The notes below the pieces were generated by a model. That model was given only the letters and a program-made list of their open reading frames with translations, had not been told where the DNA came from and ran no database searches. A DNA stretch of 64,000 nucleotides from Dehalococcoidia bacterium (lineage in GTDB: Bacteria > Chloroflexota > Dehalococcoidia > Lucifugimonadales > UBA3495). The first letter of the stretch is position 1, and every line of letters begins with the position of its first letter. The DNA lies in contig DPHC01000014.1 of assembly GCA_003523055.1 (NCBI GenBank), positions 60,312-124,311 on the forward strand, written 5' to 3'. The position numbers and the translations under genes are program-made. Of the stretch, positions 7,993 to 58,915 are shown piece after piece.

Positions 7993-8552
7993 TGATGAGT
8001 GAAAAGAAAATAAATAATCACATAAAAAGCCAAGCTTCTGTTAAACAGTTGTGTATTTACTTGGTTTTGTTTGCTGCATTTATTATTTCATGTAACTCAG
8101 ATGCCGCACCTGATGCCAATAAAGCTATTGATTTTCAATATATTCTATATGACTCAGAAAACACTAAAATTGATTTTGCTACACTTTATGACAAACCTAT
8201 TATATTGAATTTTTGGGCTGGGCTTTGTCCTCCATGTAGGGCAGAAATGCCAGATTTTCAGTTGTTTCATGAACAATACGGTTCACAAGTAACTGTAATC
8301 GGAATTGATGTTGGTAAATACACAGGATTGGGTTCTAAAAAAGATGCGTTACGACTAATTGAACAATTGAATGTGGATTATGTAATAGGCGGAACATCAG
8401 AAAGCAATATAATAGAATTATATGAAGTATATGGGTTACCTACAACTGTATTTATTGACTCCGATCAAAATATTATCAGAACATGGTCTGGAGCGGTTAA
8501 CTTAGAAAAACTAAGAGACATCGGTCTCAGCATGATAGAATCTAGCCAATAA
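7989..8552 (+). CDS. TlpA/ResA-like periplasmic thiol:disulfide oxidoreductase (Cys form, CPPC), probable lipoprotein
   Basis: 187 aa. It has a signal peptide with a lipobox-like IISC, the Trx-fold motif ILNFWAGLCPPCRAEMPDF and GLPTTVFID. Its start overlaps the mfd stop (ATGA). Confidence 0.75.
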   Translation: MMMSEKKINNHIKSQASVKQLCIYLVLFAAFIISCNSDAAPDANKAIDFQYILYDSENTKIDFATLYDKPIILNFWAGLCPPCRAEMPDFQLFHEQYGSQVTVIGIDVGKYTGLGSKKDALRLIEQLNVDYVIGGTSESNIIELYEVYGLPTTVFIDSDQNIIRTWSGAVNLEKLRDIGLSMIESSQ

Positions 8553-8554
8553 TT

Positions 8555-8631
8555 CGGGGTGTAGCGCAGCTTGGTAGCGCGCATCGTTCGGGACGATGAG
8601 GCCGTAGGTTCGAATCCTATCACCCCGACCA
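8555..8631 (+). tRNA. tRNA-Pro (anticodon CGG)
   Basis: Hand-folded cloverleaf. Acceptor CGGGGTG/CACCCCG, D arm GCGC/GCGC, anticodon stem CATCG/CGATG with loop TTCGGGA, T arm GTAGG-TTCGAAT-CCTAT, discriminator A and an encoded CCA. Confidence 0.85.
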
Positions 8632-8660
8632 AACAATTAACGTTTTCATAGGAGTTAAAA

Positions 8661-9155
8661 ATGAATGTATTACAGCCGATAGCCAAAGAAGTAGCTGAAT
8701 TGCTTAAGTCAACAAATCAGACATTGTGTGTTTCAGAGTCATCAGCCGGTGGACTTATATCTGCTACATTGGTGTCCATACCAGGGGCATCTAATTATTA
8801 TGTAGGTGGAGCAGTGATTTATACAAGAGTGGCTCAAAAAGGATTACTGCTAGTGGAAGATAAAGCAATAGAACATATGAGGGCTAGCACAGAAGAATAT
8901 GCTACTTTGAATGCAGAGACGATCAAGAGCGCACTGTCGACAGACTGGGCTTTAAGTGAGACTGGAGCAAGTGGCCCGACTGGCAACAGATATGGAGATT
9001 CTTCTGGACATGCATGCATTGCTGTGGCAGGACCAGTTTCTAGATCTATAACCGTTGAAACTGGCGACACAGACAGAGAAGCTAATATGTGGGTATTTGC
9101 AACTAAAGCCCTAAATCTTTTACGAGATTGTATAAATGATTCCCAATCCGCCTAA
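8661..9155 (+). CDS. pncC: Stand-alone CinA C-terminal domain protein (nicotinamide-nucleotide amidase PncC-like)
   Basis: 164 aa. The segments TLCVSESSAGGLISATL and SETGASGPTG are typical of the CinA/PncC deamidase domain. Confidence 0.7.
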   Translation: MNVLQPIAKEVAELLKSTNQTLCVSESSAGGLISATLVSIPGASNYYVGGAVIYTRVAQKGLLLVEDKAIEHMRASTEEYATLNAETIKSALSTDWALSETGASGPTGNRYGDSSGHACIAVAGPVSRSITVETGDTDREANMWVFATKALNLLRDCINDSQSA

Positions 9156-10333
9156 TCAGATGTGATTTCAACATTTTTAAATGCGGGCATTACCTGTTCA
9201 GAGAATTTCTGCATTTGTTCTAATAGTACGTTTTGAGGAGTTCCCATAGGCAGACTGACACCAATTCTTTCTAGCCCTGGATATTTTTGTTCAAGTTGTT
9301 TAAGTTTTTCTATAATCAAGTCGGCAGACCCTGCAAGGAATCCTCCATTCTTTTCGGCGTCTTCAATAGTGGGTAAACCAGCTGTAGGAGCTTTGTCTGA
9401 GTTTGACATGTCCTCTATTTGCTGATCTGACAAAGCCTTCACTAGCCTCAGAGGGGCAAACATTTTGAGGTTTTCTTCATAGTATTCAGCAGCTGCTTTC
9501 AGTGCTTGCTCTTTAGAATCATCGATAAAGAAATGGTAACCGATACTTAATTTTTCTCCTAAGGCAATATTTTGGCCGGTTTTCTGATACGCTTCCTGAA
9601 ATTTTTCTATTATTTCGTTCATGGCACCTCCTTCTGCGGATCCACCGCCTATAACCCCGTTTATGTTGTGTTTGGCCATGAAATTTAATGCTCTTTCAGA
9701 TCCACTCTGTATTGGTTGCCAACATTCAATAGGCAAGCTTTTGGGTCGTGGAACCAGTGTTATTTCTTTTAGGTCGTACCCTCTATATGGCACTTCGGGT
9801 GGAATAGTGTAATTTTTACCTTTGTGCGAGAACGATTCGTTGTTGAAAGCCTTAAATATTATTTCCACTTGTTCTTCGAAGAGCTCTCTGTTTGACTCTT
9901 GGTCTAATAAAGGAGCTCCAAATGATTCGACTTCTCGGGTATGATAGCCTCTTCCTACTCCAAAAGTTACTCTGCCGTTAGTCAATACATCGGCCGTTGC
10001 CCAATCCTCGGCTAATCTCAGTGGATGCCACATAGGTGCTATATTAAAACCACAACCTATACGTAATTTTTGGGTAAGATGTGACAAATGAACCCCTAGC
10101 AGTACTATATTGGGTAAACATTCATATCCTTCTGGTTGGAAATGGTGTTCGGCCATCCACAGAGTGTCATATCCTCCAGAATCCATTTGCTTAGCTAAAG
10201 CTGTCATTTTATCAAAAGCAGTACATAAGTGGTCATTGGAATATTTCCGATCATTTACTGGAGTTCCTTTGTAACCTACGTTGTCCATATCTACGTGACC
10301 TGCATATAAGCTGTCAAATTTAGTGATAGGCAT
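9152..10333 (-). CDS. Luciferase-like monooxygenase (LLM) class flavin-dependent oxidoreductase
   Basis: 393 aa. It shows a bacterial-luciferase TIM-barrel pattern (LWMAEHHF, GRVTFGVGRGY, FEEQVEII). It overlaps the convergent pncC-like gene by 4 nt. Confidence 0.7.
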   Translation of the reverse strand: MPITKFDSLYAGHVDMDNVGYKGTPVNDRKYSNDHLCTAFDKMTALAKQMDSGGYDTLWMAEHHFQPEGYECLPNIVLLGVHLSHLTQKLRIGCGFNIAPMWHPLRLAEDWATADVLTNGRVTFGVGRGYHTREVESFGAPLLDQESNRELFEEQVEIIFKAFNNESFSHKGKNYTIPPEVPYRGYDLKEITLVPRPKSLPIECWQPIQSGSERALNFMAKHNINGVIGGGSAEGGAMNEIIEKFQEAYQKTGQNIALGEKLSIGYHFFIDDSKEQALKAAAEYYEENLKMFAPLRLVKALSDQQIEDMSNSDKAPTAGLPTIEDAEKNGGFLAGSADLIIEKLKQLEQKYPGLERIGVSLPMGTPQNVLLEQMQKFSEQVMPAFKNVEITSD

Positions 10334-49441: not shown

Positions 49442-50803
49442 ATGGAATATCGAAACATTCCAAGTGTCGAGGCTGTGATAAATACAGATTCCTTGAAAGA
49501 ATTGTCAGGTGAATACCCACGGGAATGGCTAGTAGATATTACTAGGCTACAAATATCTAATAACAGAATTGGAATCAAGGAAGGACACCCCGTTAAGAAT
49601 GCTGAAATTATTTCTATGGAAGTAGTGGACTATGTGAAAAATATCATGTCAGTTAAACCACGCGATGTGATCAATGCATCAGGCGTTATTATACATACTA
49701 ATCTAGGTAGGGCCCCTTTGAGTGAAGACAGTATAACATCAGCAATGAAATGTTCTGAAGGATATAGTGACTTAGAATTTGACCTGGAATCAGGTAAAAG
49801 AGGAGCACGATTGGCATCGGTTAAATCATTATTGACTCAACTTACGCAAGCCGAAGATGCTGTTGTAGTAAACAATAATGCAGCGGCTTTATTATTGGCT
49901 TTGTCTGCTTTGTGCACTGGTAAAGAGGTAATAGTGCCAAGAAGCGAAGCTATCGAAATCGGAGGAGGGTTCAGAATACCAGACGTATTATCACAAAGTG
50001 GAGCCACGTTGGTGGATATTGGGACTACTAATAGGACATATATATCTGATTATGAAAGAGCAATTTCTGATAACACTGGAGCTTTTCTAAAAGCCCATTC
50101 TAGTAATTTTGTTATTACTGGTTTTACCCATGAGGTAAGTACTAAAGAATTGTCAATTATAGGTAAAAAGCATGGAATTCCGGTAATGCATGATGTAGGC
50201 AGTGGAGCTTTTTTGGATACTAGTGTTTATGGATTAACTCATGAGCCTACTCCTCAAGAAAGTATAGCTGATGGGGCAGATTTGGTATTTTTTTCTGGCG
50301 ATAAATTATTAGGAGGCCCACAATCAGGAATAATAATTGGTAAGAAAGCATATATATCTGTGTTAGAGCGACACCCTATGATGCGCGCTATACGTATGGA
50401 TAAGATGAATTTAGCAGCTTTATCTACTACTTTGGGACACTATCTGAAAAATGAAGCCCTCACTAAGATACCAGTTTGGAAAATGATTTCTACTACAAAT
50501 TCGGAATTGATGCAGAGGCTGCAAGCAATAATACAGCAATGTCAGACAGGGGTTAGTATCCAAGAATCTGAATCTGCTATTGGAGGGGGGAGTTTGCCAG
50601 GAGAAACAATTCCCACAAAAGTTTTGAGTATAGACTGTTCTTTATTAGGAGTTTCTGCTGAAAAAATGCAGAGTGATTTTCGTAAATTGAGAATACCAAT
50701 TGTAGTAAGAATAGAAAACGAAAAAGTTATAATAGATCCTAGAACCATCTCTCCTGCCGATGACGAATATGTAAAACTGGCGTTACAATCGGTTTTAAAA
50801 TAG
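49442..50803 (+). CDS. selA: L-seryl-tRNA(Sec) selenium transferase
   Basis: 453 aa. It has the characteristic N-terminus (IPSVEAVINTD), then INASGVIIHTNLGRAPL, VVNNNAAALLL and a PLP-Lys region (FFSGDKLLGGPQSGIIIGKK). Confidence 0.87.
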   Translation: MEYRNIPSVEAVINTDSLKELSGEYPREWLVDITRLQISNNRIGIKEGHPVKNAEIISMEVVDYVKNIMSVKPRDVINASGVIIHTNLGRAPLSEDSITSAMKCSEGYSDLEFDLESGKRGARLASVKSLLTQLTQAEDAVVVNNNAAALLLALSALCTGKEVIVPRSEAIEIGGGFRIPDVLSQSGATLVDIGTTNRTYISDYERAISDNTGAFLKAHSSNFVITGFTHEVSTKELSIIGKKHGIPVMHDVGSGAFLDTSVYGLTHEPTPQESIADGADLVFFSGDKLLGGPQSGIIIGKKAYISVLERHPMMRAIRMDKMNLAALSTTLGHYLKNEALTKIPVWKMISTTNSELMQRLQAIIQQCQTGVSIQESESAIGGGSLPGETIPTKVLSIDCSLLGVSAEKMQSDFRKLRIPIVVRIENEKVIIDPRTISPADDEYVKLALQSVLK

Positions 50804-52283: not shown

Positions 52284-52345
52284 TTTTATGAGGTATTTGA
52301 AGAAATAGGTTAAGTTAACTAACTTGCCTTAATGGTGTGGAATTT

Positions 52346-52939
52346 ATGGTAGTAATAGGTCTAACTGGCGGAATAGCAACAGGTAAAAGCGAAGCTTCAC
52401 GGATTCTAGAAGAATTGGGGGCTACCTTAATCAATGCTGACCTGATTGGGCATGAAGCTTATAAACAAGGGTCAGTAGGTTGGGAAAGTGTAGTACAGGC
52501 ATTCGGTAAAGGCATATTAGATGAGTCTAATGAGATAGACCGTACTAAGCTTGGGACTATAGTATTTGCTGACAAAGATCAACTTGAAATTCTTAATGGG
52601 ATAATGCACCCGATCATGGAACAACTTGTGGATGAACGTATCCATGAATTTAAAGCTATGGGTCTTCATGTAATCATAGTGGAGGCAGCTTTAATGTTTG
52701 AAGCAGGATGGGATAAATTAGTAGATATAGTATGGGTTACTGACGCTCCCCAAGAAATTGTTGTTGAAAGATTGCTACAAAGAAACGGATTCGACAAAGA
52801 TGAATCTGAAAAACGTATCAATTCTCAAATGGCCCGGCACTTAAGATTGGGAAAAGCTGACTTGGTGTTAACAAATAATGGTGACCTAAATGACTTCAAA
52901 AATGGTATATTAAATGCTTGGGAAACATTAACTAGATAG
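52346..52939 (+). CDS. coaE: Dephospho-CoA kinase
   Basis: It begins MVVIGLTGGIATGKSE (P-loop) and has ADLIGHE and VEAALMFEAGW. The ORF-track start (GTG 52337) lies 3 codons upstream. Confidence 0.85.
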   Translation: MVVIGLTGGIATGKSEASRILEELGATLINADLIGHEAYKQGSVGWESVVQAFGKGILDESNEIDRTKLGTIVFADKDQLEILNGIMHPIMEQLVDERIHEFKAMGLHVIIVEAALMFEAGWDKLVDIVWVTDAPQEIVVERLLQRNGFDKDESEKRINSQMARHLRLGKADLVLTNNGDLNDFKNGILNAWETLTR

Positions 52940-52955: not shown

Positions 52956-53849
52956 ATGGTAGATGTATCAAAAACTGAATCAAAAGAATATGCGATAGAA
53001 GAATTTTTAATAAAAGAAAAACCATACTACAAGCCAGTGGGAGATGAAGAAGAGCTTTTTAATGCGGCTTATAAATCTCATATACCTTTGTTATTAAAAG
53101 GGCCAACAGGGTGTGGTAAAACAAGATTTGTTGAATATATGGCGTGGAAATTAGGAAGACCAATGACAGTTGTCAAAAATAAAAAATCTTCTTCTGAGGA
53201 AGATACACAGAAACAAATCCCATTAGTGACAATCGCATGCCACGAGGATTTGACAGCTAGCGACTTGGTAGGTAGATATCTTTTAGACGCAAATGGCACT
53301 AAATGGATGGATGGACCCATGACTAGAGCCGTTAAAAATGGAGCTATATTGTATTTGGATGAAGTCGTAGAAGCCCGAAAAGACACTACTGTTTTGATTC
53401 ACCCTCTAACCGACCATCGTAGAGTTCTACCGATAGAGAAAACGGGAACAATTATTGAAGCTGATGACAACTTCTTGCTATGCATGTCTTACAATCCACA
53501 TTATCAGAGCGCTTTGAAGGACATAAAGCAAAGCACGAGACAAAGATTCATATCAGTTGAATTTGACTATCCGCCTGTAGATGTGGAAGCTGAAATAGTA
53601 TTTCAAGAAAGTGGATGTACTGAAGACCAGGCTAACTCACTCGCTAGATTGGGTGAAAAAATAAGACATTTGAAAGATAGCGGTTTGCAAGAAGGAGCTA
53701 GTACTAGATTACTAATATATGCTGGAAGGTTAATTAAAGAAGGAATTACTCCTAGAAGAGCTTGCCAAGTCGCAATCGTATGGACTTTAACCGACGAGCC
53801 AGATTTACAGAGAAGTATAGAAGAAGTAGTTTCTTCGATCTTTGAATAG
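52956..53849 (+). CDS. MoxR-class AAA+ ATPase of the CbbQ/NirQ/NorQ subfamily
   Basis: 297 aa with Walker A LLKGPTGCGKTR and Walker B ILYLDEVVEA. The length and the C-terminal lid (GASTRLLIYAGRL) match the CbbQ/NorQ type. Confidence 0.85.
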   Translation: MVDVSKTESKEYAIEEFLIKEKPYYKPVGDEEELFNAAYKSHIPLLLKGPTGCGKTRFVEYMAWKLGRPMTVVKNKKSSSEEDTQKQIPLVTIACHEDLTASDLVGRYLLDANGTKWMDGPMTRAVKNGAILYLDEVVEARKDTTVLIHPLTDHRRVLPIEKTGTIIEADDNFLLCMSYNPHYQSALKDIKQSTRQRFISVEFDYPPVDVEAEIVFQESGCTEDQANSLARLGEKIRHLKDSGLQEGASTRLLIYAGRLIKEGITPRRACQVAIVWTLTDEPDLQRSIEEVVSSIFE

Positions 53850-53852
53850 AAA

Positions 53853-54449
53853 ATGCAAGAGTTCTCGCTTACAGATCTTCAAAATGTTTTGAATAAAAAA
53901 TCTCCCGCTGATGCAGGCAATGAAGAGAACTATATGCCTGCAGCGGTAATGGTTTTAATATATTTGAAGAATGGAGAGTATTCTATACTTCTGAATAAAC
54001 GTTCTGAATTAGTGGAGCACCATAAGGGAGAGATGTCATTTCCTGGAGGAGCAAAAGACCCTGTAGACAATGATTTTCTTGATACTGCTCTTAGAGAAAC
54101 TGAAGAAGAAATGGGAATTAGTAAATCGGATATCACTGTGTTGGGCAGATTAGACGACGTAATTACTAGAAGCAATTTTATTGTCAAAGTATACGTTGGA
54201 ACAATTGAATATCCTTACCAATTTAACCCTAGCATTGAAGAAATAGCAGAAGTAGTTGAAATTCCAATTTCAAATTTATTGTCATCAGATAACCATAGTA
54301 TAGAAACTAGATGGGACGGAAAAATTTTTAATGATGTAATAACTTATGCTTTTCAAAATTACTTAGTCTACGGAGCTACAGCTATCATTCTGGCTCAGTT
54401 TCTAGACATAGTATCGGATAATTTTGTAATGAAGGAGAGCCTCATTTGA
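53853..54449 (+). CDS. NUDIX hydrolase, CoA pyrophosphatase-like
   Basis: 198 aa. It has the Nudix box PGGAKDPVDNDFLDTALRETEEEMGI, preceded by ILLNKRSELVEHHKGEMSF (the CoAse-type LLTxR...H.G motif). Confidence 0.68.
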   Translation: MQEFSLTDLQNVLNKKSPADAGNEENYMPAAVMVLIYLKNGEYSILLNKRSELVEHHKGEMSFPGGAKDPVDNDFLDTALRETEEEMGISKSDITVLGRLDDVITRSNFIVKVYVGTIEYPYQFNPSIEEIAEVVEIPISNLLSSDNHSIETRWDGKIFNDVITYAFQNYLVYGATAIILAQFLDIVSDNFVMKESLI

Positions 54450-57400
54450 GTATTGAAGACTGGAATCAACTAGAACAATCATTGAAAACGCTACCAGGAA
54501 CTGTGGAAGATGCTTACGTCGAGTCAAAAAACGTGATGCAAGAAGTGTTTAGTGATGATGAGTTGTTACTGTGGGGAAAAGAAGGACTCTCAATCGGAAC
54601 CCAGACGGTTCGCTCCTGGGAAGCTGCTATTGAATATTTTAATGTGAGTCACTTAGTAGTTAAATCTTTAGCATTTCCTTCATTCATGCAATGGGCTCGG
54701 TGTGGGACACATTTGTCTCAAGATGCACCTTCGTTGGCATCATCGTTTTTCAATGTAAGCCCATCTATAGTCACCAATTTACGACCTCAATATATTCCTA
54801 GATGGGTTGGTTTAGGACGAAGTCTCTACAAAGGAACTTGGAAATCAGGAAATTTGGCCTCTAAATTTTTTGAAATGAGCCCAGAATTAGTACGGAACCT
54901 ACCTTTTTGGGATTTAGAAATATTTGCATCTATTTTGGAAACCATATCTGGTAAATCTTATGAGGTAGCATCAGATTGTTTGGACTTAGGAGCAACTGTG
55001 TTGCCGGCAATGAGCCGTGAACGAGAAGTCTTTTTGTCGATGTTGCGCTCATTAACCGATACTAGTTGGAGAGAAGTTAAAAGTTGCTTAGAGGTTGTGC
55101 CAAGGGCCGCAAAAGAAATTGATGAAGGTCAAATCGGAAGATTTTTGAAACTAGGAGAAAAATTAGCTAAAACAGGAATGAAAGACACATCAAGATTTTT
55201 ATCGGATGGCACCCAGGCATTGAGTGGGCTGGAATCAAATACCCACGGCCATATCATAGATTTGTGTGAGACTCTGCTGGGAGAAGATCCAGATGCTGTC
55301 CAGCCATTTTTAAAAAGCCTAGAGCAAGCATTGGACTTAGTAACACTTGCTCAATTAGATCAATGGTTTAGCAAAGGCGTTGACCTTATCAAAGAGAACA
55401 AAGAAACTGGGCTTGCATATTTCAAAATAGAATCTAATACGTCAGAGACAGTATTAAACACGCTGTCTTCTAGTGTTGATCTGGATTTGATTAAAGGAAT
55501 CATCAATATGTATTGCACTGCTTTGTCTGGCCAAGAATTACAGATTAGCAACAGCCAAGAATTAGTAGATAAAGGCATTGGATGGATTGACGGTAGTTGG
55601 GCTTCAACCGATGGTACCCAAGTGTTTCTACCATCAATAGTTGATCAATATGATGATAAAGCTGCTAATTTCTCGTGGTTTAAAGTTATAGCTACCCATC
55701 AAGTAGCTCGATTAGAATTTGGTAGCTTTGAGTTTGAATTTGAAAAACCGTCAGTTGTGTTTAGTAACAGGCGAAAGGAAACGGAACAGGCTAAATCAGA
55801 GCGACTCCAGAAATTGGGACAACCAGATGATGCAGGGAATATACGGACATACACAGATATTGGAAAATTATTTAATTTATTTGAAGAATCTAAATTAGCA
55901 TTCGATATATTCACAGTATTAGAAGATTGCCGACTGGACCACATTATTAAAACTATGTATCCAGGAATAAAAACAGCTACAAAACAGATCCAAGATGACG
56001 CTATATTGAAAAGGCCAGAATTGACAGAACTCCCCTTGAAAGAAGCAATGGTGGAATTATTGATCAGGTTTAGCTTGGATCAGTTCAACAGTTTACAAGT
56101 TCCTACAGAGTATGAAGAAGTAGTAAACACTTTAGCAAATTTAGTTAATACATTGCGCAATGCGGATTCCACAGTAGAGGACTCAGCTGAAGCTACAATT
56201 AGAGCGTATGAAATTATTTCAAAGATCATCAACGATACAAAACCTGAAGAAGAATGGAAAGATGAGGACTTAGAAGACCAACTAGAACAATTTGATGAAG
56301 ACGAATTTGAATCATTAGTTGAAAAATTGCAACAGGCAATGGAAATGTCAGGAGAAGATGGAGATGGAGATGGAGATCCATATGACTCACCTTCCCCTGT
56401 AGAGTATAGAGGTGATTTTAAACCAGAAATGGTTCAATTAATGTCCAAATTGCAAAGCGATGCTGCTGATGGTGGGGATGATCAACCTTTGAGCCAGGAA
56501 GAATTAGAACAATTATTACAAGAGAGTAATGATTTAGAGCTTGATGCGGAACAAGGAGAATTAGATGCAGGAATGTTTGCAGCTTTTGTTGAAAATATAA
56601 TGAAAGAAGCTGGAATGCCACCACCCGATGGAGATCCAGGAGATGGCCAATCACCAGTTCTATCTGCAGGAGAGGAAGAAGGTGAACTTGAGGCTCAAGA
56701 GCCGAAAACGTTTGCTTATGATGAATGGGATTTCAGAGCAGATGATTACAAACCTAGATGGTGCATTGTGAAGGAAAAAGTAATAGAGGAAGGAGAACAA
56801 TCTTTCTATACTGAAGCCATAGCAAATTATTCAGGCATATTGGCCCATATCAAGCGCCAATTTGAATTAATAATGCCAGAAACCTGGAGAAAGACTTACC
56901 GATTGGTAGATGGTGAAGACATTGATTTAAACGCGGCATTAGAAGCTGTAGCTGATTTACGTATGGGAATTCCTCCGGATGATAAAATTTACTGGCGCCG
57001 TAATAAAGTAGAAAGAGATGTAGCAGCAGTATTCCTTTTGGATATGAGCGCTTCTACCGCAGAGGCAATAGACGAAGGTAAACAGACCACTGATGACAGT
57101 GATGCCCCTGATGATCCAGTAGAGTACATGGTATGGCTCAGGAGACGACGTGAAGGTTTAACCAGGCGTAACTATAAAAGAATAATTGATTTAGAGAAAG
57201 AGAGCGCCGCATTGATAACCCAGGCAATAGAATCTATAGGTGACCAATATGGAATATACGGATTTTCTGGATATGGTCGAGAGAATGTGGAATTTTATGT
57301 CATAAAAGATATAGATGAACCATTTAATGACACTATTAAACGGAGAATAGATAAAATCACCCCTTTGCATGCTACCAGAATGGGAGCCTCAATTAGACAT

Positions 57401-57703
57401 GCTATTACTAAATTAGAAAACCGCGACGCTACAACAAAAATAATGTTCTTAATCAGTGATGGTAGACCACAAGACAGAGGATATAGCAGAGAAGGGGTAG
57501 AAAAAGAATATGCAGTACATGACACTCATCAAGCATTAATTGAAGCAAGGCGGAAGAATATAATACCGTTTTGTCTTACTGTAGATAAGGCTGGGCATGA
57601 CTATCTGAAAGACATGTGTGGGGATATGGGCTATGAAGTCCTAGATAATATATGGTCTTTGCCAGAGCGTTTACCTATGCTATATCGCAATTTAACGAAG
57701 TAA
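54446..57703 (+). CDS. Large CbbO/NorD-like protein with a C-terminal von Willebrand factor A (VWA) domain
   Basis: 1085 aa with a TTG start 7 nt after GAAGGAGAG, overlapping the NUDIX stop. It has the family-typical YDEWDFRADDYKPRWC motif and the MIDAS motif FLLDMSASTAE, plus ...YGFSGYGRENVEF... and ISDGRPQD. A long helical N-terminal region and a strongly acidic linker are also present. Confidence 0.75.
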   Translation: MSIEDWNQLEQSLKTLPGTVEDAYVESKNVMQEVFSDDELLLWGKEGLSIGTQTVRSWEAAIEYFNVSHLVVKSLAFPSFMQWARCGTHLSQDAPSLASSFFNVSPSIVTNLRPQYIPRWVGLGRSLYKGTWKSGNLASKFFEMSPELVRNLPFWDLEIFASILETISGKSYEVASDCLDLGATVLPAMSREREVFLSMLRSLTDTSWREVKSCLEVVPRAAKEIDEGQIGRFLKLGEKLAKTGMKDTSRFLSDGTQALSGLESNTHGHIIDLCETLLGEDPDAVQPFLKSLEQALDLVTLAQLDQWFSKGVDLIKENKETGLAYFKIESNTSETVLNTLSSSVDLDLIKGIINMYCTALSGQELQISNSQELVDKGIGWIDGSWASTDGTQVFLPSIVDQYDDKAANFSWFKVIATHQVARLEFGSFEFEFEKPSVVFSNRRKETEQAKSERLQKLGQPDDAGNIRTYTDIGKLFNLFEESKLAFDIFTVLEDCRLDHIIKTMYPGIKTATKQIQDDAILKRPELTELPLKEAMVELLIRFSLDQFNSLQVPTEYEEVVNTLANLVNTLRNADSTVEDSAEATIRAYEIISKIINDTKPEEEWKDEDLEDQLEQFDEDEFESLVEKLQQAMEMSGEDGDGDGDPYDSPSPVEYRGDFKPEMVQLMSKLQSDAADGGDDQPLSQEELEQLLQESNDLELDAEQGELDAGMFAAFVENIMKEAGMPPPDGDPGDGQSPVLSAGEEEGELEAQEPKTFAYDEWDFRADDYKPRWCIVKEKVIEEGEQSFYTEAIANYSGILAHIKRQFELIMPETWRKTYRLVDGEDIDLNAALEAVADLRMGIPPDDKIYWRRNKVERDVAAVFLLDMSASTAEAIDEGKQTTDDSDAPDDPVEYMVWLRRRREGLTRRNYKRIIDLEKESAALITQAIESIGDQYGIYGFSGYGRENVEFYVIKDIDEPFNDTIKRRIDKITPLHATRMGASIRHAITKLENRDATTKIMFLISDGRPQDRGYSREGVEKEYAVHDTHQALIEARRKNIIPFCLTVDKAGHDYLKDMCGDMGYEVLDNIWSLPERLPMLYRNLTK

Positions 57704-58915
57704 TTTAGCGAGTTCTATCAAAGCGATATTGGCTGCTCGTCTTCTAATTATAACCCTTCTTGGAGCTAGGGTTAGAGGGATTTCAGTAAAAGTATTCTCG
57801 TGCGAAATTGATATGAATATCTGGCTAGTATTAGTCGATGGATTAGACTCCAAAGAAGTTGACCCGGCAATGCCTACACCATAGTCAGATCCAAACTGGT
57901 TTCTTACTGCTAAACTCATGGCATTGGCAGTTTCTTGACTTACAAATCCATGCTTGTTTATGATTGATTCTGGTACTCCGTAAAAAATAGCTACTTCGGA
58001 GGTATTGACAGTTAATCCTCCTTTATAGAACTTATCACTTTCCGGTGCATCTGTTATGGTACTAGCTAATATTCCGCCAGTGCCACATTCTATTGTAGAT
58101 AAAGTTTTGTCTATCCTGTTTAAATGCTCTGCTATAGATTGTTGAGGAGTATATTCGTCAAATCCCCATACGAATTCTTCTAATGCATCAACGATATCTT
58201 TCTCCATCGGTTTTATCATAGAATCAGCTTGAGATTCAGTTCGAGCTCTAGCGATGATTCTTAGATGTATGCCATCTTGTTTGGAATATATCCCGAGATA
58301 AGGGTTTTCTTGACCGAAGTGAGGGCTTAAAATCTCGTCTATTTTACCTTCTGATAACCCCATAGTTTTTATGGTCCGAGTTAAGGTTATTTCTTGATTG
58401 CTTATCATCTGTAATGAAGGACGTATTTGCTCTTCCCAAAGAGGGTGCATTTCTGAAGGAGGGCCTGGTAAAGATATTATGATTTTGCCTGATTTTTCTA
58501 CCCACCAGCCTGGAGCAGTACCGTATTTGTTGGGAACGAATTTAGCTGATGGTATTAAATGTGCTTGTTTTATGTTTGTATTTGGCATATCTTGACCCCG
58601 GGAAGCGAAATGTTTTTTCAGTTGTTCTACGATTTCTGTTTGGATTACAGGTGTTTCATTCATTGCTATAGATATCGCTTCACGAGTTAAGTCGTCTTGC
58701 GTTGGTCCTAGCCCTCCAGTAGTGATAATTAAATCAGCTTTTTGCAACGATGATTCGACTGCTCGAACTAACATGTCTATATCATCACCGACGATAGAAA
58801 TACCGTTTAGAACAATTCCTAATGATGGCAATTTTGAAGCTATCCACGAGGAATTAGTGTCGGTTAATTCTCCCATCAATAATTCATGCCCAATAGACAG
58901 TATGTAAGCCTGCAT
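57692..58915 (-). CDS. cinA: Competence/damage-inducible protein CinA (MoCF-binding domain plus PncC deamidase domain)
   Basis: 407 aa with the motifs ILSIGHELLMGELTDTNS, ITTGGLGPTQDDLT and a C-terminal ECGTGGILAS. It overlaps the convergent VWA gene by 12 nt. Confidence 0.85.
   Translation of the reverse strand: MQAYILSIGHELLMGELTDTNSSWIASKLPSLGIVLNGISIVGDDIDMLVRAVESSLQKADLIITTGGLGPTQDDLTREAISIAMNETPVIQTEIVEQLKKHFASRGQDMPNTNIKQAHLIPSAKFVPNKYGTAPGWWVEKSGKIIISLPGPPSEMHPLWEEQIRPSLQMISNQEITLTRTIKTMGLSEGKIDEILSPHFGQENPYLGIYSKQDGIHLRIIARARTESQADSMIKPMEKDIVDALEEFVWGFDEYTPQQSIAEHLNRIDKTLSTIECGTGGILASTITDAPESDKFYKGGLTVNTSEVAIFYGVPESIINKHGFVSQETANAMSLAVRNQFGSDYGVGIAGSTSLESNPSTNTSQIFISISHENTFTEIPLTLAPRRVIIRRRAANIALIELAKLLR

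Follow-up and report, generated by a model that had tools for sequence, protein, structure and literature searches.

A long-adaptor MoxR remodelling module encoded beside dephospho-coenzyme A kinase in the Dehalococcoidia

Introduction

Few clients are known for the machines that combine a CbbQ/NorQ-type MoxR ATPase of the AAA+ family (Q) with a VWA-domain adaptor of the CbbO/NorD type (O); examples are Rubisco and the nitric oxide reductase that depends on cytochrome c (cNOR); with the related motors CobST and BchID, chelatases are added. The present analysis concerns a Q/O pair encoded in a stretch of 64,000 nucleotides (the window) from a Dehalococcoidia bacterium (GenBank assembly GCA_003523055.1, contig DPHC01000014.1, positions 60,312 to 124,311). 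The source genome is 1.79 Mb in size, 93.8% complete and belongs to a marine, SAR202-like member of the class. The homologues carry the labels Dehalococcoidia, SAR202 cluster or Chloroflexota metagenome-assembled genomes; few bacterial groups in the dark ocean are more abundant than SAR202. In the window the two genes alternate with those of a dephospho-coenzyme A kinase and a Nudix hydrolase, in the order coaE-Q-Nudix-O, and O belongs to a distinct, Dehalococcoidia-specific clade of long adaptors, a variant that is real, conserved and so far undescribed among the Q/O remodellers. All positions given below refer to the window, and its features lie on the + strand unless stated otherwise.

Two described systems are closest to this pair. 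NorQ and NorD (PDB codes 9qh4-9qhg; PMC9976466, PMC13036017) serve the insertion of the non-haem iron FeB into cNOR. In the NorQD model obtained by cryo-electron microscopy in 2026, a helix-2-insert motif of NorQ, GRxLL/IxxxxT, contacts and grips the finger of NorD, and rotation extends the linker that joins two anchor points (PMC13036017). CbbQ and CbbO, represented by the structures of Halothiobacillus CsoCbbQ (5c3c) and Acidithiobacillus CbbQ2 (6l1q) (PMC4660213, PMC8718961), form an AAA+ hexamer with one VWA adaptor and act as an activase that evicts a phosphorylated, tightly bound ligand; no CbbO structure has been deposited for comparison with O.

The pair in the window has in common with NorQD the helix-2-insert motif, the finger, a VWA domain with a MIDAS (an adhesion site dependent on a metal ion) of the form DxSxS...T...D, the hydrophobic tail, a region like NorD's N-terminal domain, and the acidic linker. 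The same mechanics would be expected. Unlike NorQD, it was found without norCB and outside any denitrification context, and it shares its operon with coaE and a Nudix gene, not with the client. O also differs from NorD in being 440 residues longer, with a 343-residue solenoid and a 34-residue insert after the MIDAS, and Q differs from NorQ in an extra variable loop. A hexamer with one VWA adaptor, as in CbbQO, is likewise expected, but the genome is without Rubisco and the context is one of housekeeping genes, not of cbb or carboxysome genes.

Domain structure of Q and O

The Q protein (297 residues; 52956..53849) matches the Pfam families AAA_5 (PF07728) and CbbQ_C (PF08406) with 104 bits each, both with an E-value of about 1e-30. 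Its best-scoring solved relatives are CbbQ structures (5c3c, 337 bits; 6l1q, 319 bits), followed by NorQ (9qhd, 299 bits; 9qh4, 291 bits). The Walker A motif GPTGCGKT (residues 49-56, 53100..53123) and the Walker B motif ILYLDE (residues 131-136, 53346..53363) are present. The segment GRYLLDANGT (residues 106-115, 53271..53300) fits the helix-2-insert motif described for NorQ (PMC13036017), which is kept in 36 of 36 aligned Q sequences, with K in place of R in three. Strand 2 is separated from helix 1, which is the Walker A helix, by a variable low-complexity loop (residues 70-89, 53163..53222). In the alignment this loop varies in length; it is present in the Dehalococcoidia sequences and missing from the Thermoleophilia Q of locus L028. 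As judged by sequence, Q is an ATPase of the CbbQ/NorQ subfamily of MoxR proteins, and a hexamer is predicted by homology.

The O protein (1085 residues; 54446..57703) has a VWA match (PF00092). Its residues 756-1085 (56711..57700) align with the finger, the VWA domain and the C-terminal tail of NorD (E-value of 5e-34 to chain 9qhd_G). Residues 756-876 correspond to NorD 354-473, the section that holds finger residues 403-448, and the YDEWDF motif (residues 758-763, 56717..56734) is situated at its start. The segment LPMLYRNL of the C-terminal tail LPMLYRNLTK is aligned with the C-terminal LPQIYRQL of NorD. The MIDAS has the sequence DMSAST (DxSxS; residues 866-871, 57041..57058), and D866, S868, S870, T977 and D1005 are invariant among 30 O sequences. 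The Walker motifs of the ATPase, YDEWDF and DMSAST had all been named in the original prediction, made from the letters of the window, and all were located. In a Foldseek search with the full-length model of O, the VWA chains of NorD were at the top and only generic VWA domains were found otherwise. These domains and motifs, together with the NorD match, identify Q and O as a genuine module of the CbbQ/NorQ and CbbO/NorD type, as predicted.

An alpha/beta region resembling NorD's N-terminal domain precedes the finger (residues 345-635, 55478..56350). In the AlphaFold2 (AF2) model its predicted local distance difference test score (pLDDT) is mostly 60-92 and lower in loops. The profile match between O 344-412 and Paracoccus NorD 36-114 is weak and not significant alone. 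A naturally short O of about 707 residues, found in the Dehalococcoidia family f6, begins at about O 344. The end of this region overlaps an acidic, mostly disordered linker (residues 600-755, 56243..56710; pLDDT below 50 over much of its length), recognized by composition, which is the counterpart of the NorD linker. The NorD alignment and the start of the f6 short form together indicate that O consists of a canonical NorD/CbbO-like protein (about residues 345-1085) with three additions. These are the N-terminal extension, the long acidic linker and the insert after the MIDAS. O exceeds the solved NorD proteins (638-646 residues) by approximately 440 residues because of its 343-residue extension and the longer linker. 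It is important to note that the whole of O, including the extension, is conserved, with a mean column identity of 72% in 30 sequences ranging down to 45% identity.

The N-terminal extension (residues 1-343, 54446..55474) is predicted by AF2 with high confidence (pLDDT 93.7, predicted template modelling score 0.87) as an alpha-solenoid of 19 helices, built from degenerate hairpin repeats of 38-40 residues. The repeat units 56-96, 94-133, 131-171 and 281-320 are related with hhalign probabilities of 86-96%, and two 20-residue segments of the FF..SP type occur at residues 101 and 141. Internal repeats in an oversized helical N-terminus had been proposed from the sequence; the profile-profile comparison bears this out, although BLAST self-comparison of O did not detect them. 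The loop GTWKS (residues 130-134, 54833..54847), within LYKGTWKSS between solenoid helices 7 and 8, is invariant in sets of 30 and 21 sequences. A fold search with the extension gave no natural structural match at E-values up to 0.001. Only designed helical repeats and mTERF were found, at E-values of 0.008 and above, and they are uninformative as to function. The profile of the extension retrieved 569 clusters at 50% identity, in which, contig fragments aside, it forms the N-terminus of proteins of approximately 1000-1130 residues. No other architecture was seen among these clusters except in one metagenomic protein, P0140 (913 residues), where the extension (residues 370-690) comes after PAS and HisKA domains; chimeric assembly or the calling of a read-through open reading frame (ORF) is the probable cause.

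The insert just after the MIDAS (residues 877-910, ...DAPDDPVEYMVWLRRRREGLTRRNYKR, 57074..57175) was delineated in the alignment. It consists of 34 residues, is basic in its C-terminal half and is a signature of the long O of Dehalococcoidia. A shorter version is found in the f6 short form, and the insert is absent from the Actinomycetota relatives and from NorD.

Organization and conservation of the gene cluster

The four genes lie on one strand and are separated by a gap of 16 nucleotides, a gap of 3 nucleotides and an overlap of 4 nucleotides, respectively. The spacing that had been read from the sequence, with coaE 16 nucleotides ahead of Q, Nudix 3 nucleotides after it and the Nudix stop overlapping the TTG start of O, is correct in every detail. 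The coaE gene (52337..52939; PF01121) ends with the TAG codon 52937-52939, and its product is assigned at equivalog level to dephospho-CoA kinase (TIGR00152; score 164 bits, cut-off 65.6). The intergenic 16 nucleotides contain the Shine-Dalgarno-like GGAGAAGG ahead of the ATG of Q. Between Q and Nudix the TAG of Q is followed by AAA and the ATG of Nudix (53853..54449). At the last junction the Nudix TGA shares the letters TTGA with the TTG start of O, and GAAGGAG is found upstream. No + strand terminator-like site was found inside the four genes, and promoter-like sites are not in excess over chance. The genes would thus form one housekeeping operon and be co-transcribed, as far as their arrangement shows. 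Q, Nudix and O have no paralogue in the genome, and coaE is a single copy (one PF01121 match). The listed GTG start of coaE at 52337 (MEFMVVIGL...) is probably wrong, and the ATG at 52346 is likelier, since the homologues begin with M[LFV]VIGLTGG.

The Nudix protein (198 residues, PF00293) is a putative coenzyme A (CoA) diphosphatase. Among solved proteins, NUDT7, NUDT11 and the CoA pyrophosphatase of D. radiodurans (DR1184, 1nqz) match it best. Alignment with NUDT7 placed a NuCoA-like motif LLNKRSELVEHHKGEMSFPGG and a Nudix box GGAKDPVDNDFLDTALRETEEEMGI at residues 46-89 (53988..54119). The upstream pre-motif with FPGG and the Nudix box are conserved, and both are common to the known CoA diphosphatases (NUDT7, NudL/PRK10707, DR1184). 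Two positions differ from the NuCoA signature of PROSITE. The protein also scores below the curated NCBIfam cut-off for PRK10707 (102.6 against 134 bits), and its gene is situated between those of Q and O.

Among the Chloroflexota classes sampled, the long-O clade is widespread in one only. In an even sample of 301 Chloroflexota genomes, O was found in nine, all Dehalococcoidia, and the long form occurs in no other Chloroflexota class sampled. Among 401 evenly sampled Dehalococcoidia genomes, 264 have an O match, mostly full-length long forms with a minority of short forms and fragments. This frequency marks the long-O clade as a class-level, core-like and mostly vertically inherited trait. 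Relatives of Q and O were present in 34 of 401 Actinomycetota genomes, where O has about 610-880 residues and lacks both the N-terminal extension and the MIDAS-side insert. The orphan pairs of Actinomycetota and of family f6 have a Q 52-67% identical to that in the window and an O that is 30-50% identical in its C-terminal part. They have the NorD-like N-terminal region, the finger and the VWA domain in common with the long form, do not have the solenoid or the linkage with coaE and Nudix, and are without a known client. In loci of high G+C content the ORFs were called from homology, without the use of a gene finder.

All 26 Dehalococcoidia loci obtained by scanning a genome collection, with O identities of 45-85%, have the order coaE-Q-Nudix-O, while their flanks change. 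The original prediction regarded the Nudix gene as part of the MoxR-VWA module and named chance adjacency as the alternative; within this clade the conserved order speaks against chance. In more distant families, however, the slot between Q and O may hold Nudix, a YfcE phosphodiesterase or nothing. Genome G300 (family f2) has coaE-Q-Nudix-O; G195 and G045 have coaE-Q-O with Q and O adjacent; G228 has a gene for a metallophosphoesterase of the YfcE family in the slot; and in G292 O is inverted, with coaE and Q still together. In G159, Q-Nudix-O is kept, but coaE is divergent and lies on the contig at a distance of about 110 kb. Of 22 genomes of the class tested, 20 have a CoAse-type Nudix; slot-empty and YfcE-slot families are included, and there it is encoded elsewhere. 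Nudix is therefore an associate of the module in the close clade and not a universal, integral member of it.

The most persistent adjacency is that of coaE and Q, although it is confined to the class Dehalococcoidia. The coaE gene is directly upstream of Q also in the distant families f2 (G300), f5, f11 and f13, and the adjacency extends over families with G+C contents from 30% to 69% and through the inversion of O in G292.

In genome G114, which has no Q/O, CoaE and Nudix are fused in one ORF of 408 residues. This fusion belongs to a family of 384-417 residues with at least 40 clusters at 90% identity, ranging down to 36% identity, for which no description was found in a literature search. 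Fusion genes were observed at L052:814-2040 (- strand) and in L114, L116 and L118 at 8001-9200, all in Dehalococcoidia without Q/O. Q and O are not beside the fusion gene in three of three contexts, and a convergent cinA follows it in two of the three, as it does after O, so that the fusion locus looks like the operon minus Q and O. Since Nudix is encoded elsewhere in slot-empty genomes and is fused to CoaE in relatives that lack Q/O, it appears to be mainly the partner of CoaE. The arrangement in the window is better described, from gene order, as two interleaved pairs, Q/O and CoaE-Nudix. The fusion family suggests that the synthesis of CoA and its breakdown are coupled.

Possible function and the search for the client

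The mechanics of Q and O as a MoxR-type remodelling machine are well supported by homology to NorQD and CbbQO. By this analogy a Q hexamer would hold one O molecule (Q6:O1), with the finger of O entering the Q pore and its C-terminal tail binding the Q ring. The MIDAS would capture an acidic residue of the client, and ATP-driven rotation would stretch the linker of O between the two anchor points. The solenoid and the MIDAS-side insert presumably are surfaces for binding the client or a partner.

The reading we favor is that the long-O proteins form a new clade of Q/O remodellers tied to CoA-nucleotide metabolism, with a probability of about 0.4. It is based on the persistence of the coaE-Q adjacency across the range of G+C contents and the inversion of O, on the fact that the slot genes encode phosphoesterases (CoAse-like Nudix or YfcE), and on the confinement of the N-terminal extension and the MIDAS-side insert to the coaE-linked clade, apart from the shortened insert of f6. 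The most likely task of the module would be to repair or activate some enzyme of the cytoplasm to which a CoA-type nucleotide binds. The motor would pry the client open, and a tightly bound or damaged CoA-derived ligand would be released. The phosphoesterase of the same operon, here Nudix and in another family the YfcE phosphodiesterase, would then destroy the ligand, and CoaE would complete the resynthesis of CoA. Such a role would parallel that of Rubisco activase with its inhibitor phosphatase, and the ligand-evicting CbbQO activase could serve as its model. We infer both the substrate of Nudix and the CoA-linked role as a whole. A more specific form of the proposal, in which Q/O, CoaE and an exchangeable phosphoesterase would be an unrecognized cofactor-site repair system for CoA-dependent metabolism, with the solenoid and the insert recognizing a client locked by a CoA nucleotide that is damaged or a dead end, is rather unlikely.

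Several observations weigh against a link with CoA. No coaE or Nudix gene was found within about 10 kb of Q/O at 15 Actinomycetota loci, nor near the short-form Q/O of family f6. All coaE linkage is within one class and may therefore be inherited gene order, and the synteny of selA, rarA and cinA around the operon is kept as well. The CoAse Nudix is near-universal in the class and is encoded elsewhere when it is not in the slot. CoaE and Nudix stay together, fused, where Q/O is absent, which indicates that the two CoA enzymes do not need Q/O. Genome G159 keeps its Q-Nudix-O with a remote coaE. An alignment of 32 linked, 15 unlinked and one fused CoaE showed no distinguishing insertion, tail or motif. 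Finally, a candidate client did not emerge from any test or neighbourhood examined.

The same facts lend weight to the possibility that Q/O is an independent chaperone in a housekeeping operon, maturing or repairing an unlinked client that is probably a metalloenzyme of the aerobic marine lifestyle, while CoaE and Nudix would be an unrelated pair for CoA turnover whose interleaving with Q/O is historical and kept only by co-expression. This possibility follows closely behind the favored one, with a real, if less than even, chance of being correct. The CoaE-Nudix pair is a unit of its own, as indicated by the fusion family at the syntenic locus without Q/O, and the slot is variable, with Nudix elsewhere in slot-empty genomes. 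Relatives outside the Dehalococcoidia have no CoA genes nearby, and neutral synteny with selA, rarA and cinA is preserved likewise. All characterized Q/O-like systems act on metalloenzymes or Rubisco (PMC9976466, PMC13036017). The long O also tracks the aerobic marker COX1, which 59 of 68 long-O genomes have, as against 4 of 28 genomes without long O; strong as it is, this association is confounded both by lifestyle and by phylogeny. However, an interleaved coaE-Q-Nudix-O order would be odd for two unrelated pairs, the coaE-Q adjacency has survived large changes of G+C content and the inversion of O, and no other client is linked to Q/O at any of about 50 loci examined.

Another proposal is that Q/O is a maturation factor for metal insertion into an A-type heme-copper oxidase, by analogy with the action of NorQD on cNOR; we consider it improbable. 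NorB of cNOR and COX1 belong to the same superfamily, the source genome has one COX1 gene, and the co-occurrence just described would fit. However, nine of the 68 long-O genomes are without PF00115, among them the single-contig G408 (95% complete), both sampled members of f109 (100% and 95%) and two long-O members of f15, while G123, G307 and G325 have COX1 but no O. These nine genomes argue against the oxidase as an obligatory client, and it was rejected as such. In addition, cox genes never adjoin Q/O. As a separate observation, the f6 genomes with short-form Q/O are without COX1. In two long-O genomes without a normal COX1, COX1-family frames of 770 residues with weak PF00115 matches (E-value about 1e-49) were noted at G439:C1:1061057-1062376 and G666:C3:77424-78743; 770 residues is a size typical of quinol-dependent nitric oxide reductase.

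CoaE itself could be the client or a stable subunit, docked by the O solenoid so that the motor regulates or reactivates it. The N-terminal extension does occur only in the coaE-linked clade, in which coaE-Q is the stablest adjacency. Nevertheless this seems a poor prospect: many related genomes have a CoaE that works in the absence of Q/O, G159 keeps a long O with an unlinked and divergent CoaE, and linked and unlinked CoaE have no specific insertion, tail or motif to tell them apart. As a specially adapted partner, CoaE was rejected on the same alignment, in which the fused form was equally indistinguishable.

A canonical CbbQO Rubisco activase, a canonical NorQD or a vWA-MoxR conflict or defence system can be dismissed as extremely improbable: Q resembles CbbQ and NorQ and the C-terminus of O resembles NorD, but RuBisCO_large (PF00016) has no match in the whole genome, the sole PF00115 gene, on another contig, is a full-length COX1 of 520 bits for which a NorB would be expected to score weakly, and PADLOC found nothing beyond weak P-loop hits to IetA, with none for O or Nudix, in a conserved, single-copy and vertically inherited housekeeping context that is not island-like. 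The families of conflict systems had been suggested for comparison, and membership in them is not supported.

No NOR-like gene was found within about 5-9 kb of the operon, norC not having been searched for separately. The earlier statement that no Rubisco, NOR or other known client gene is nearby is upheld and, for Rubisco, extends to the entire genome; nor was a known client operon found regularly linked to the long-O clade. The data exclude Rubisco and cNOR as the client, and a heme-copper oxidase as an obligatory one, and place the client elsewhere in the genome. The literature search gave no relevant link of NorQ, NorD or CbbQ with Nudix, coaE, SAR202 or Dehalococcoidia.

A structurally distinct orphan clade, present in approximately two thirds of the sampled Dehalococcoidia including genomes of the SAR202 cluster, is thus persistently linked with the step that completes the synthesis of CoA. 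Should the link with coaE prove functional, Q/O would be the first remodeller of the AAA+ class with a tie to the enzymology of CoA. Otherwise the clade still reveals a client that is probably important for the physiology of the host. The long-O pair is of interest mainly as a well-defined experimental target.

Neighbouring genes

The neighbourhoods of the relatives are diverse. The f6 short form is accompanied by a beta-lysine-type cluster, a NadN/UshA-like nucleotidase and MgtE-like and Nramp genes. At locus L047 (4893-6707 and 11127-13926) of this family, Q/O was observed after a cluster of lysine-2,3-aminomutase, ATP-grasp and GNAT genes and beside MgtE-N/CBS and Nramp genes. Loci of the Thermoleophilia type have a divergent ilvB and, in one case, cydB/cydDC, and other Actinomycetota loci have an amidohydrolase, a metallophosphoesterase of 615 residues, an MFS transporter and a fatty-acyl-AMP ligase. 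No neighbour recurs across these groups except, loosely, phosphoesterases, which are near Q/O in four independent contexts: Nudix, YfcE, the f6 nucleotidase and the Actinomycetota metallophosphoesterase. The last two lie outside the slot and may be there by chance.

In one group of Actinomycetota an ORF of 361-364 residues was observed between Q and an O of approximately 615-730 residues. It matches O from about 271 to 436 and occurs at L028:7845-8930, L109:11266-12360 (- strand) and four more loci. This ORF may encode a separate protein for part of O, or the ORFs may be mis-called in high-G+C DNA.

The conserved neighbours of the operon in Dehalococcoidia are housekeeping genes, namely selA, rarA/mgsA, a GNAT gene and cinA. 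At 17 loci of the class the only recurrent neighbours not noticed before were selA, rarA/mgsA and cinA, and no conserved gene follows O other than these housekeeping neighbours. The selA gene (49442-50803 in the window; also at L015-L026, L041 and L043) stays by coaE across deep divergences in either orientation. Neutral synteny is thus well preserved in this region, and caution is needed with guilt by association. The cinA gene (57692..58915, - strand) is convergent with O and overlaps its end by 12 nucleotides at the 3' end; it serves as a synteny marker only. The pairing of cinA with O is kept as far out as G195, which belongs to a family with an O identity of 43%.

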